Origin: Candidatus Dojkabacteria bacterium
GTDB taxonomy: Bacteria; Patescibacteriota; Dojkabacteria; SC72
Direction of reading: 5' to 3'
DNA length: 46,717 nt
NCBI GenBank assembly: GCA_018056375.1
Contig: JAGPFQ010000001.1
Location: forward strand, 598,137-644,853
This document shows, in pieces, positions 1,868 to 6,927 of the stretch (positions are counted from its first letter, which is position 1; each line of letters starts with the position of its first letter). The notes below the pieces were generated by a model. That model did not search any database, had not been told where the DNA came from, and saw nothing but the letters and a program-made list of their open reading frames with translations. A program made the translations under genes and the position numbers.

Positions 1868-2146
1868 ATGGGTAAATTTAACAAAGAGATGATTTGTACT
1901 GAATGTGGTTACATAGGTAAACCCAAAAAGTGGATGAAAGGAAGCTTCTTTATCGAACTAATACTTTGGTTAGCCTTTCTTGTTCCAGGAATTATTTACA
2001 CAATTTGGAGAGTAACAAATACTGTTGCAATATGTCCTAAGTGCGAAAAAGAAACATTAATTCCAACTGATACTCCTAGAGGTGCTGAGCTAAAGGCTAA
2101 AAGCACACAGTTAACTACTCCAAACAACAATCAACAGCTTTCCTAA
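1868..2146 (+). CDS. Small membrane protein with CxxC - hydrophobic segment - CxxC (LITAF-like zinc-binding architecture)
   Basis: CTEC...FFIELILWLAFLVPGIIYTIW...CPKC. Confidence 0.75.
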   Translation: MGKFNKEMICTECGYIGKPKKWMKGSFFIELILWLAFLVPGIIYTIWRVTNTVAICPKCEKETLIPTDTPRGAELKAKSTQLTTPNNNQQLS

Positions 2147-2216
2147 CAACATCCCCTATCTTCCCCCAAAAATCATTCTTCTTTTCTTTTTTCTCTTTCT
2201 TCTTTGTCTTTTCCAT
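2115..2216 (-). CDS. 33-aa ORF MEKTKKKEKKEKKNDFWGKIGDVVRKAVDCCLE; probable detached C-terminus of the 2218..2664 gene
   Basis: Read manually on the minus strand; ATG starts 1 nt after the TAG of the upstream gene; ends TAG 2115-2117. Not in the ORF track. Confidence 0.65.
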   Translation of the reverse strand: MEKTKKKEKKEKKNDFWGKIGDVVRKAVDCCLE

Positions 2217-2217
2217 A

Positions 2218-2664
2218 CTATGCTTTCTTCACATCTTCTAACTTAATAACACCCATATTCAATGCCCAAAACAAAGAATACAAGTTATATGCCTTCTCAA
2301 ATACTTCTTCTGCTTCCTTCTTCTTTCCTCTACCTAAGCACTTTGTCCCATACTCCATTAATCTGTAACTTGCTGCTAACAAATGCTTAGAAATACACCA
2401 AACCTCTCCATCATACTGTTTAATTATCTTCTTCAAAAGTTCCTTCCTCATCTCTCTAATCTCTGCAAGAAGGTCATAATATGTAGAATCTCCTGTCTTA
2501 CCACCACTAAAGAACAGATGTTCTTCAATTGAGATAAGGTTCATAATTGCAATAGATAAATCCTGATCTGCTGAAAGATCTAACTTCTGATCCTTCTTCA
2601 AAGCATCATACTTCTCAACTAACTCATTAACATCTTGCATTTCAATATCTTTTTTCTTTGACAT
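2218..2664 (-). CDS. Conserved helical hypothetical protein (LSIAIMNLISIEEH...WCISKHLL family), apparently C-terminally split
   Basis: ORF track 150 aa from TTG 2670; ATG at 2664 preferred. Motif recognised from memory as a CPR-common family found next to glutaredoxin and membrane CxxC genes. Confidence 0.8.
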   Translation of the reverse strand: MSKKKDIEMQDVNELVEKYDALKKDQKLDLSADQDLSIAIMNLISIEEHLFFSGGKTGDSTYYDLLAEIREMRKELLKKIIKQYDGEVWCISKHLLAASYRLMEYGTKCLGRGKKKEAEEVFEKAYNLYSLFWALNMGVIKLEDVKKA

Positions 2665-2698
2665 AATCAAAAAACATTATCTTAACTAAATATTCTGC

Positions 2699-3694
2699 TT
2701 AGTATACTATGAAATAGAGAATTATTGTAGTTATTAATAATGAAGCCACAGGAACAACTACTCTTTGATATGGGAAATACACCTTACCTTTGTTCTTTTC
2801 CTTTAGGAAAGTATGTAGTTTGCTACCAAGAAAAAACATAACACTACCTAATACTACCCCTAGTAAAATCTTATCTATTCCAAGTAAAGTATTATTTGGA
2901 ATCCCTATCAAACCAGTAATCTTCATAGGGATTAAAGCAAAGGCATACATTAACAGTAAAGAAGCTAAAACCCAGACCCAACCACTGACTTTCTTAGCAA
3001 ATTTTTTCTTTTGAATCCAATCTGCTAACCACAAGCTACTTGAAATCAAAAGACCTCCAATCCAAACACCTACAATAGTATCATCAATACCCAAAGACCT
3101 AGACAAGCCTACACCAGCACCAACAGCTACTGTACAGAGAGGACATACGGCATTTACAGGTGTTGCAAAAAACAAAGGAAGAAGCAACAAAGAAGCTATA
3201 ACCCCAATCTTCTTTCCTCTTCTACTTTTTACAAAATATCCAAAGATTGGAAGGACTATCAAAAACCCAAGAACTATTAAAATCAACTTCTCTGTATTAG
3301 CCTGACCTTTAGACTTTTCTTTCTGCTCAGTTGGAGCTGGTTCTTCAAGCTCTTCCCCTGAGACAATACCTCTAAGCTTCGACATAATTGGTTCAACCCC
3401 TTGGTAACACTTTCCATCCACATATAACATTGGGATGCTAGGATCAACATTACATTCTTTAACCATACTACTAAAAAGCTCTGTTTTTTCCTTCCTACCA
3501 TCTAGTTCTATCTCTTCAAATGTAACAACCTCTTTAATACCCTCCTCTTCAATCTTTCCTTTAACTATATGACAGTAAGGACAGTTTTCTGACCAGAATA
3601 ATATCATCTGGTTTTTTGCAAAGACACCTCCACCTAAAGAGAAGAGAAGTACAAAAGAAATTAGAAAGAATGTGTTAACAGAACCTTTCCTCAT
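2699..3694 (-). CDS. Exported glutaredoxin/thioredoxin-like (CPYC) domain fused to a polytopic membrane domain with CPLC motif
   Basis: N-terminal signal/TM, FWSENCPYCH, later IPMLYVDGKC, TM, then AVCPLCTVAVGAGVGLSRSLGIDDTIVGVWIGG and about 4 more TM segments. Confidence 0.85.
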   Translation of the reverse strand: MRKGSVNTFFLISFVLLFSLGGGVFAKNQMILFWSENCPYCHIVKGKIEEEGIKEVVTFEEIELDGRKEKTELFSSMVKECNVDPSIPMLYVDGKCYQGVEPIMSKLRGIVSGEELEEPAPTEQKEKSKGQANTEKLILIVLGFLIVLPIFGYFVKSRRGKKIGVIASLLLLPLFFATPVNAVCPLCTVAVGAGVGLSRSLGIDDTIVGVWIGGLLISSSLWLADWIQKKKFAKKVSGWVWVLASLLLMYAFALIPMKITGLIGIPNNTLLGIDKILLGVVLGSVMFFLGSKLHTFLKEKNKGKVYFPYQRVVVPVASLLITTIILYFIVY

Positions 3695-3779
3695 GTTCTT
3701 ACTGTTAAAATTAAAACTGACAAAGCTATTTTACACTGTTTTGTTATAAATTTCTTTAAAATGTTTCTATTATTTTTAA

Positions 3780-3808
3780 TTGACACGAATCAAATACGCT
3801 TGTATATT
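3780..3808 (+). promoter_or_regulatory. sigma70-type promoter of the pilus operon
   Basis: TTGACA (3780-3785), 17-nt spacer, TATATT (3803-3808), upstream of pilin ATG 3843. Confidence 0.65.
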
Positions 3809-3842
3809 GAATATGTATATAATTTAATTAATATTTATTTCT

Positions 3843-4325
3843 ATGAAAGGAAAGAAATATGAGGGTTTCTCTCTTATCGAGATCCTAGTAGTAGTAGCAT
3901 TAATCATTATTCTTGCTGCTATTACAATTATTGCAATCAACCCTGCAAAGAACTTTAGGGATACTCGAAATGCACAGAGAGCTTCTGATGTAAATGCTAT
4001 TCTTAATGCAGTTACACAGTATACTTCTGAGCAGAACAAGAAGCTCAGCGACTTAGGAACCATTGTAAAGTGTGAGGATCCCGACGGGAACGAACAGTCT
4101 ACAAAGATTGGTAAAAGTGCAGAAACAGGTTTTATAGACCTTTCTGCAAAACTTGTAGATGAAGCAGACCTAATTGTCGCAATCCCTGTAGACCCATCAC
4201 AAACAAAGGAAAACAAAGAATCAGGTGATGACACAGGTTATACCATCTGTGAGACTGCAGGAGGGAGAGTCCAAATCGCAGCTCCTATGGCTGAAGAAAC
4301 AGATCCTATTGTCGTAAAAAGATAG
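3843..4325 (+). CDS. pilA: Type IV major pilin
   Basis: Class III signal KKYEG|FSLIEILVVVALIIILAAITIIAINP; first gene of the operon; IPVDP motif. Confidence 0.9.
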   Translation: MKGKKYEGFSLIEILVVVALIIILAAITIIAINPAKNFRDTRNAQRASDVNAILNAVTQYTSEQNKKLSDLGTIVKCEDPDGNEQSTKIGKSAETGFIDLSAKLVDEADLIVAIPVDPSQTKENKESGDDTGYTICETAGGRVQIAAPMAEETDPIVVKR

Positions 4326-4381
4326 TTAGAGAAAGAAATATATAAAGTGAGTATCAGATAGCTCTTAGCTGTCCAAGAGTT

Positions 4382-5776
4382 ATGGTAGAACTATTACAAT
4401 TACTAGATGATGTTCTTAAGAAGAAGATTAATATATCTGACTTCCTTGATGCTCTAGTAGTGGATGCTCTTAAAAGCAGAGCATCTGATATTCACATAGA
4501 ATCCAAGGAGGATGATATTCTTTTAGTAAGATACAGGGTTGATGGAGTATTGAGAGATATAATTTCAATTGGTCCAGAACTAAAAGATACTCTCCTCTTT
4601 ATCATCAAAGTAAGAGCTAAGTTAAGAACAGATGTTCATCTTGCACCACAGGATGGGAAGATTCCTTTTGTTGTTAAAAAAGCCGATATTGATGGTGATA
4701 AAGAGAAGATAAAGAAAGAGGAAGAGAATGATAAAGACCAAGAGAAAGATGATGCAGAAAAACCCATTGAGGAAAAAGAGGAAGAGGAACAAGAGAAGAA
4801 AGTACTAAACAGGTTGGAAGCATTCAAAGCAGAAGAAAAAGACACTTACAATGTTGATGCTAGAGTATCAATACTTCCTGTTTCATACGGTGAAAAAGTT
4901 GTAATTAGATTGTTAACACAAGCGAACCGATCTCACTCTTTAGCTGATCTAGGTTTTGAAGAACATGATTTAGCCGAACTAGAGAAAGCATACACACAAC
5001 CATATGGACTAATATTAATTACAGGACCTACAGGTAGTGGTAAAACCACCACACTCTACTCTATTCTAAAGATATTAAATACTCGGGAGGTCAATATAAC
5101 AACGATTGAAGACCCTGTTGAGTACAGTATCGAAGGTGTTAATCATATCCAAATCAACGTAAAAAGTGATTTAACCTTTGCTACTGGACTTAGATCTATT
5201 TTAAGACAAGATCCAAATGTCATTATGGTCGGCGAGATCAGAGATACAGAAACAGCTAGAATTACTGTTAACTCGGCACTAACAGGTCACTTAGTGCTAT
5301 CTACTCTCCACGCAAACGATTCCGTAAGTGCTGTACCAAGATTGATAGATATGGGTATTGAACCTTTTTTAATCGCATCTACATTAAATATTGTCGTTGC
5401 ACAAAGATTAGCAAGAAAACTCTGTCCAGATTGTAAGAAACCATGCTCTCTAGAAAAAGATAAAGAGATAAAAGAAATGTTAAAGATAAGACCAGATGTA
5501 GCAAAATATATAAAACCAACAGATAAATTCTACAAAGCAGTTGGTTGTGATAAATGTAACAATGTTGGATTAAAAGGAAGAATCGGAATATATGAAGTAC
5601 TAGTAATTAACAAAACTATGAGAGATACAATAATAAAGAATCCTACTATGGACGATATTTTCCAAACAGCAAAGAAATCTGGTTTTAAACTAATGGTAGA
5701 AGATGCTGTAGACAAACTTAAAAAAGGATATATAGATATACCTGAATTACTTAAGGTTATTGCAATTAAAGATTAA
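4382..5776 (+). CDS. pilB: Type IV pilus/T2SS assembly ATPase (PilB/GspE)
   Basis: ASDIHIE, Walker A GPTGSGKTTT, TIEDPVEY, LRQDPNVIMVGEIRD, TGHLVLSTLH, CxxC...CxxC zinc motif. Confidence 0.95.
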   Translation: MVELLQLLDDVLKKKINISDFLDALVVDALKSRASDIHIESKEDDILLVRYRVDGVLRDIISIGPELKDTLLFIIKVRAKLRTDVHLAPQDGKIPFVVKKADIDGDKEKIKKEEENDKDQEKDDAEKPIEEKEEEEQEKKVLNRLEAFKAEEKDTYNVDARVSILPVSYGEKVVIRLLTQANRSHSLADLGFEEHDLAELEKAYTQPYGLILITGPTGSGKTTTLYSILKILNTREVNITTIEDPVEYSIEGVNHIQINVKSDLTFATGLRSILRQDPNVIMVGEIRDTETARITVNSALTGHLVLSTLHANDSVSAVPRLIDMGIEPFLIASTLNIVVAQRLARKLCPDCKKPCSLEKDKEIKEMLKIRPDVAKYIKPTDKFYKAVGCDKCNNVGLKGRIGIYEVLVINKTMRDTIIKNPTMDDIFQTAKKSGFKLMVEDAVDKLKKGYIDIPELLKVIAIKD

Positions 5777-6927
5777 TGGCAGAAGAAGAAAAAATCAAAG
5801 AGGAGAAAATTCAAGAAGAGAAACCTAAAAAAGAAAAACCAAAGAAGGAAGTACCTAGAGAGAAGCTTTTGAAAAAATTACAGGGAGTAAAGGTCTCTGT
5901 GCCAAACCTTTTAGTTTCTATAAAATCTTTAGCTTCATTACTTAAAGCTGGTATACCTTTGTCTGAAACAATGGAAACCATTGCAGGGCAATCAAGTGAT
6001 CAAAATCTTAATGCTGTATACGAGTATATCGCTGGAGAAGTTAGAAAAGGAGTCACATTAGCAGAAGCAATGAAACTTTTCCCCAAGGTCTTTCCAGAAA
6101 CAATTTCATCTGTAGTAGAAGCTGGAGAACAAGGTGGTTCTCTTGAACAAAACCTTATCTTCATTTCCGATACAATTAAGAAAGAATGGGAGATTAATAA
6201 GAAGCTAAAGGGGGCAATTATCTACCCTATTATTATAGTTTCTATGGTTTTTATGGTTTTCCTCGCCATGATATTTATAGTATTCCCAAAGTTAGAAGTT
6301 ATGTTTGCAACTTTTGAAAACATACCTACTTTTACAAAAACGATTTTAAGTGTTGCTAAATATATTCGAACAAATTGGTATTTTATCTTTGGTGGTATTG
6401 GTGTCCTAGTTGTTCTTTTTATCATCTTCTTAAAAACAAAACCTGGTAAAAGATTCAAAGGTTGGCTTGGGATTAACTTCCCTATTCTTAAAAATCTCTT
6501 CATCAACAACATTCTATCCTCTTTCTCAAGAACTCTGAGTGTGTTGCTAGCAAGTGGTATTCCTATAGCTAAATCTATGAAAATTGCAGCAAACACAACA
6601 AGTAACTATATTTATGCAGAAGTGTTAGAAGAAGTATACAAGAGTATAGAAGCTGGTGATTCGCTATCTCTTTCATTAGGCAAGCACCCGAAATATTTTA
6701 ATAAATCTTTCATTAAAATGGTTGAGATAGGAGAAGCTAGTGGGTCACTAGAAGACAATCTTATGTACCTACATGAATATTATGCCGAAGAGGTAGGAGA
6801 GATGAGTGCAAATATCGTTACAGTTGTAGAACCTGTTCTACTCATCTTGGTAGGTCTTATCATCGGAAGCTTAGTAGTAACTATCCTCATGCCTATTTAC
6901 CAATTAATGGGTTCTATCAATGGTTAA
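5776..6927 (+). CDS. pilC: Type IV pilus inner-membrane platform protein (PilC/GspF)
   Basis: Two GspF repeats (LLKAGIPL...AGEQGGSL; LLASGIPI...IGEASGSL) and three TM segments; start overlaps pilB stop (TAATG). Confidence 0.95.
   Translation: MAEEEKIKEEKIQEEKPKKEKPKKEVPREKLLKKLQGVKVSVPNLLVSIKSLASLLKAGIPLSETMETIAGQSSDQNLNAVYEYIAGEVRKGVTLAEAMKLFPKVFPETISSVVEAGEQGGSLEQNLIFISDTIKKEWEINKKLKGAIIYPIIIVSMVFMVFLAMIFIVFPKLEVMFATFENIPTFTKTILSVAKYIRTNWYFIFGGIGVLVVLFIIFLKTKPGKRFKGWLGINFPILKNLFINNILSSFSRTLSVLLASGIPIAKSMKIAANTTSNYIYAEVLEEVYKSIEAGDSLSLSLGKHPKYFNKSFIKMVEIGEASGSLEDNLMYLHEYYAEEVGEMSANIVTVVEPVLLILVGLIIGSLVVTILMPIYQLMGSING

Follow-up and report, generated by a model that had tools for sequence, protein, structure and literature searches.

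A reading frame that seems to go on beyond its own stop codon can be explained in several ways, and the locus described here raises the question of which of them applies. The window, i.e., the whole stretch of 46,717 nt of Candidatus Dojkabacteria DNA that was analyzed, carries on its minus strand a gene (hereafter the body gene) followed at once by a short reading frame in another register (hereafter the tail gene), with the sequence ...GTG AAG AAA GCA TAG T ATG GAA AAG ACA... around the junction. The original prediction weighed four possibilities: recoding by a programmed +1 frameshift at a slow UAG, division of the gene into two coupled peptides, a single base inserted recently, or a fault in the assembly. 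The coordinates and sequence that it gave for both ORFs proved right when the minus strand was read again and compared with the ORF list (Table 1). The body gene encodes a helical-bundle protein corresponding approximately to residues 1–145 of intact homologs of about 176 aa, contains the invariant motifs IEEH and WCISKH, and its 148-aa product has also been predicted by gene callers on other contigs. The tail microprotein consists of a polybasic N-terminus followed by an amphipathic helix and a vicinal Cys-Cys pair. Within its gene, positions 2173–2210 form a low-complexity stretch of Lys codons.

Table 1. Features of the split locus and its surroundings, in positions of the window.
Feature	Position	Strand	Description
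Body gene	2218..2664	-	148 aa; ATG 2664..2662, stop TAG 2220..2218; ORF list 2218..2670/2664
Stop-start junction TAG-T-ATG	2214..2220	-	Spacer T at 2217, ATG 2216..2214; tail frame +1 with respect to body
Tail gene	2115..2216	-	33-codon ORF MEKTKKKEKKEKKNDFWGKIGDVVRKAVDCCLE, C-terminal end ...DFWGKIGDVVRKAVDCCLE
Grx/CPxC membrane partner gene	2699..3694	-	331 aa; upstream of body gene
92-aa zinc-ribbon/TM ORF	1868..2146	+	Convergent with tail gene; context, outside the split gene

The conceptually fused sequence was searched against a collection of 5.8 billion protein clusters and retrieved more than 8000 relatives that fall into two length classes. The closest ones (80–92% identity) are all 146–154 aa long and belong to Candidatus Dojkabacteria wherever a name is given, while relatives at 64–69% identity are 171–191 aa long, with 96% of the fused query covered. 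The long, fused homologs end in ...KKGF[ML]GKLGxLVKKAIDCC[IL]E, and the original prediction was right that intact members of the family end with ...LGELVKKVIDCCIE, since the 171–191-aa proteins carry the DCCxE end. Tail residues 13–33 align to the final 21 columns of the profile built from fused homologs (hhalign, probability 97%, E 7.8e-11, identity 67%), a sequence match to the fused-family C-terminus that is far beyond chance. The gene is present in a single copy in the genome, without an intact paralog, and one ORF alone has a DCCxE terminus.

Neither Pfam nor NCBIfam assigned the body, the tail or the fused sequence to a family, a sequence-profile search of the PDB gave no significant match, and a literature search returned nothing specific on this protein family or on genes split in Patescibacteria. 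A deep profile search collected 614 clusters of the family at 50% identity, some of them tandem-doubled: in P0122, P0124, and P0125 (343–354 aa) the body domain is duplicated in tandem within one polypeptide, and WCISKH and the DCCIE tail are retained in the second copy only. The 338-aa P0274, which fell into the sequence cluster of the tail, is a PheS enzyme and was set aside as a clustering artefact.

An error in sequencing or assembly could have broken an intact gene, as could a 1-nt insertion of very recent date, leaving a pseudogene in the making, and one extra base would indeed give the +1 shift seen. The same 148-aa plus 33-aa layout recurs, however, on at least 23 independent contigs, on which the identical 33-aa peptide is predicted as a gene from different samples and assemblers; on all 8 contigs shown the tail starts 2 nt past the last base of the 148-aa gene (e.g., 3553–3999 followed by 4001–4102), and both products are found in the NCBI, JGI, ENA, and Logan protein sets. 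Two independently assembled MAGs (L001 and L002), 99% identical in the body protein, show the same layout with TAA in place of TAG. A 2252-nt contig from an RNA-labelled run spans positions 2213–2695 gap-free, with no indel at the junction, and the corresponding junction from a related species, AAAGGAGACC TAG T ATG GGT AAG, is present in a metatranscriptome contig, contigs from such runs being assembled contigs in which DNA carry-over is possible. Logan contigs of four DNA runs (segment 2211–2700) end short of the junction. While this recurrence speaks against an assembly error, a recent insertion is contradicted by a split that is common to 26 species across several GTDB families, with saturated synonymous divergence, and in which the tail has its own ATG and is under purifying selection. 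Error and recent insertion, both among the options originally listed, can therefore practically be dismissed.

Discrimination between recoding and a separate gene required the comparison of many junctions. Loci were taken from species-representative genomes (80) and from the class to which the window belongs (30), and the resulting 110 were classified by script: 71 were fused, 26 represented distinct split species, and 3 ran off the contig end. The tail was retained directly downstream of the body gene in all 26 complete loci of the split clade, and in each of them it had an ATG of its own; its length was mostly 25–39 aa across the split species. All other elements of the junction were variable. 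With respect to the body, the tail lies in frame +1 in 13 split loci, +2 in 8–9 and 0 in 4, and the distance from the stop codon to the tail ATG ranges from a 29-nt overlap (-29) to a 19-nt spacer (+19), including the classic ATGA (-4) and TAATG (-1) overlaps. The body stop codon may be TAA, TAG, or TGA, and the codon preceding it is not conserved (GCA, GTA, ACC, AAA, TCT, GCT, and others).

A programmed +1 ribosomal frameshift at GCA-UAG-U would produce a fused 181-aa protein to which the CC tail is attached conditionally, as the original prediction had envisaged among its options. The window and 6 of the 24 other split relatives do have the tail in exactly +1, one base past the stop (TAR-N-ATG layout, 7 of 25 split species), and this arrangement loosely resembles stop-codon-stimulated +1 sites such as that of prfB. 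In prfB (RF2) the slippery site is CUU-UGA-C, an SD lies three bases upstream, and the offset is conserved across bacteria. The two cases have in common an in-frame stop beyond which the homologous protein continues in the +1 frame, but in the present family both site and offset vary and the downstream piece begins with an ATG of its own, an invariant element for which a frameshift would have no need. Moreover, the GCA codon of the window would shift onto CAU, where no re-pairing is possible. No stimulatory RNA structure was predicted at the junction (minimum free energy -3.9 kcal/mol over 100 nt), and no SD-like motif lies within 20 nt upstream of the tail ATG in the window; the latter is uninformative as to whether the tail is a gene, because 29 of the 35 window ORFs of at least 150 aa likewise have no such motif within 20 nt upstream of their first ATG. 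SD pairing is probably of minor importance for the start of translation in this organism. As the shift site and the offset are not conserved, and the start codon is the sole conserved element, a programmed frameshift is disfavored and has to be considered very unlikely, although a small amount of fused product may arise through rare frameshifting. Stop-codon readthrough was ruled out, most tail offsets being different from 0, and so was transcriptional slippage, as no homopolymer occurs at or before the stop.

A maximum-likelihood tree was calculated from the body domains, with the tails removed. In it the split forms constitute one clade (support 100/99) that requires one state change and was recovered in 100% of bootstrap trees, and that covers the GTDB families f1 (genera g1 and g7), f4, f12, f13, and f19 of the class. 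Outgroup orthologs encode body and tail as one polypeptide in the same order (the 71 fused loci and dozens of 171–191-aa proteins). Over the last 20 codons of the tail in 25 species, variability at codon positions 1/2/3 was 0.27/0.13/0.53 and dN/dS about 0.2, while in the body the corresponding values were 0.20/0.10/0.51 and about 0.06, with dS saturated. Judging from these values, both pieces are under purifying selection. A single clade, selection on both pieces and the loss of the tail in 0 of 26 complete loci together indicate a single old fission after which both pieces have been kept. The locus thus very probably reflects a gene fission of ancient date that became fixed in a single clade centred on Dojkabacteria and left a body gene and a tail gene with its own start, and the apparent frameshift is another instance of a known phenomenon, an ordinary and evolutionarily maintained gene fission. 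The gene is patchy in the class (30 of 200 sampled genomes), and in the family of the window it occurs, among the genera listed, in g1 and g7 only; this patchy distribution points to a module that has been lost repeatedly or has spread laterally.

According to the fission scenario, an ancestral protein of about 176 aa would have comprised a helical-bundle body, a linker of about 26 residues and a terminal amphipathic helix with a DCC[IL]E end. A cut within the linker would have left a 148-aa body ending at TAG and, on the same mRNA, a separate 33-codon tail gene with its own ATG one base past the body stop. Translation of the tail would most likely need ribosomes that finish the body ORF, either by termination-reinitiation or by unmasking of the start, and this coupling would provide roughly matched amounts of two polypeptides acting together like the fused protein. 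Neither a promoter-like site nor a terminator was found between the two ORFs. The spacing falls between -4 and +3 nt in 15 of 25 split loci (+1 nt in the window), which is the stop-start range with the most efficient translational coupling (Brown and Wade, 2025; PMC12548453), and therefore suggests that the two genes are translationally coupled. Tightly spaced gene pairs are reported often to encode subunits of one complex (PMC12548453; see also Huber et al., 2023, as cited within that paper on coupled and split genes). We infer that the tail peptide is translated and that its translation is coupled to that of the body, in line with the option of two coupled peptides in the original prediction, for which the comparative data provide support. 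The resulting peptide would bind the body or the membrane partner. With 10 of 25 loci outside the optimal spacing, coupling cannot be universal, and where the spacer measures 12–19 nt or the overlap is longer, direct initiation must play a greater part.

Compared with coupled adjacent genes in general, the pair has the co-directional ORFs, the spacing and, in relatives, the ATGA and TAATG overlaps that are expected, and its two products go back to a single functional unit, which they presumably re-form. It differs in the unusually small size of the downstream product (25–39 aa in most species) and in that Shine-Dalgarno motifs are largely absent in this lineage.

Body and tail could also be real but uncoupled genes, the tail being translated independently and having a separate role, for instance as a membrane-active or regulatory microprotein. 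Besides the 10 loci with unfavorable spacing, such a role would be compatible with the changed character of the tail after the split, i.e., its invariant Trp and an N-terminal part with 54% rather than 22% Lys/Arg, and with the N-terminal extensions of 53–133 aa in some lineages. Yet all 26 complete loci still have the tail immediately 3' of the body gene, the Grx/CPxC partner adjoins in 35 of 36, the CC-bearing helix has stayed near the fused consensus, and three body columns changed along with the split. The preserved adjacency, the helix consensus and the co-changed body columns fit a continued joint function of the two products, and independence of the tail appears improbable.

The position of the cut and the residues that accompany it were considered in the light of structural models. 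AF2 models had a mean pLDDT of 59.8 and then of 72.2 (fused homolog, 96-sequence alignment). In the latter the helical core was confident (pLDDT 77–94) and was followed by a segment of about 26 residues without regular structure, whose linker blocks had a pLDDT of about 48–55 (below 50 at residues 152–157), while the terminal helix was of low confidence (about 55). In this model the cut point falls within the segment without regular structure. A Foldseek search against the PDB matched nothing beyond generic or de novo helical bundles (best E 0.6, TM below 0.3), and no function is derivable from the fold.

Once the fission had occurred, the linker remnant would have turned into the polybasic N-terminus of the tail, and the tail would have gained its invariant Trp. 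Lys and Arg account for 54% of the linker remnant in split forms and for 22% of the linkers in fused forms, where they are balanced by 23% Asp/Glu; all 22 split forms have Trp at position 3 of the tail core, as against Met, Ala, or Leu in fused forms; and three body columns separate split from fused proteins (S32A, F50L, and V105Y), all of these being single-event correlations that carry no statistical weight. The residue changes coinciding with the split would fit an adaptation to a non-covalent partnership, and V105Y is a speculative candidate for the contact on the side of the body.

In some lineages the tail ORF is extended at its N-terminus, reaching 133 aa in L095 (genome G009, family f12) and 65, 53, and 58 aa in L025, L097, and L110, respectively. 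The extended tails have new N-terminal sequence ahead of the conserved FWxKxG...DCCxE end, and the detached arm has thus been re-attached to other sequence.

The gene upstream of the body gene offers a hint at function. Its 331-aa product begins with a signal/anchor helix and, as deduced from hydropathy and CxxC positions, comprises an exported glutaredoxin domain with CPYC at residues 38–41 and a polytopic membrane domain with CPLC at residues 184–187; its stop codon lies 34 nt before the body ATG. It matches Pfam Glutaredoxin (E 4.5e-6), NCBIfam Grx models and, weakly, DUF1129, and has no Pfam or NCBIfam match to the DsbD/CcdA family. A homolog of the partner is found directly upstream in 35 of 36 split loci and 65 of 71 fused loci. 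Most genomes with a fused tail have separate genes for a thioredoxin-like CPHC protein (about 113–133 aa) and a CPVC-membrane protein (about 162–174 aa), followed by the body-tail gene, while the split clade has a single Grx-membrane gene (326–365 aa) followed by body and tail. An intermediate architecture, with Grx and membrane domains fused and body-tail unsplit, occurs in family f10 of the same class (L106–L109). On the evidence of domain content and gene order, the same four modules are partitioned differently, as [Trx][membrane][body-tail] or as [Grx-membrane][body][tail]. Many of the contigs that carry the module (L010–L080) are titled 'uncultured Gammaproteobacteria', 'Bdellovibrionales', 'Babeliales', or 'Acutalibacteraceae', and such titles are probably due to mislabelled or chimeric bins.

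The body-tail family is an uncharacterized helical protein family of Patescibacteria, as fold and sequence searches of the PDB gave nothing significant, and because of its motifs and synteny it probably takes part with the partner in a relay of thiol redox equivalents or of a thiophilic metal. Vicinal-cysteine or Cys-Sec shuttle arms are found at the C-terminus of mercuric reductase (MerA) and of mammalian thioredoxin reductase. The likeness lies in an adjacent thiol pair on a flexible C-terminal arm beside a larger domain, but those enzymes have the arm joined covalently in every case, while here it would be a free peptide. The logic of the CcdA/DsbD relay, from cytoplasmic thiols to a membrane CxxC and on to an exported CxxC, is also similar; no sequence or fold relationship to MerA, thioredoxin reductase, or CcdA/DsbD was detected in the Pfam, NCBIfam, PDB, and Foldseek searches.

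These parallels allow a more specific reading, speculative and rather doubtful at present, in which the tail would be a free-standing polybasic Cys-Cys shuttle peptide. It would then be the smallest subunit of a transmembrane relay, undescribed so far in Patescibacteria, for thiols or a thiophilic metal. If this reading were true, the split would show that a vicinal-cysteine arm does not have to be joined covalently to its helical body; docking sites for the arm, in trans, could be the body and the CPLC domain at its cytoplasmic face, the Lys-rich N-terminus and the invariant Trp would keep the tail at the membrane surface, and the units of the relay would be the exported Grx plus membrane CPxC, the body, and the arm.

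Beyond the shuttle reading, the long maintenance of the Cys-Cys arm as a separate peptide indicates that the arm is an autonomous functional unit, able to work untethered. The body-tail family is among the most conserved uncharacterized proteins of Patescibacteria and stands almost always beside a glutaredoxin/CPxC membrane partner, and in the split clade the two pieces occur naturally apart, so that binding and redox or metal transfer in trans can be tested on them. For annotation, the tail gene of 25–39 codons is a selected part of the module across the Dojkabacteria clade and should be annotated as a gene; it is not a frameshifted pseudogene, and the two frames should not be joined as a "repair." From the methodological point of view, a +1 tail right past a stop codon mimics recoding, and the constancy of the offset versus that of the start codon decides between the two cheaply.

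Two neighbors of the module deserve mention. The convergent plus-strand ORF has two CxxC zinc-ribbon-like motifs on either side of a hydrophobic helix and a weak match to Pmp3; its 3' end covers the final 32 nt of the tail gene, including the DCCLE codons, and this overlap is also predicted by gene callers on other contigs. On the other side, a type IV pilus cluster adjoins the module (3843–6927, plus strand), with a prepilin bearing the N-methylation motif, a T2SSE/PilB-like ATPase with a long acidic/basic insert, and a T2SSF platform protein, and the cluster is syntenic on several independent contigs.
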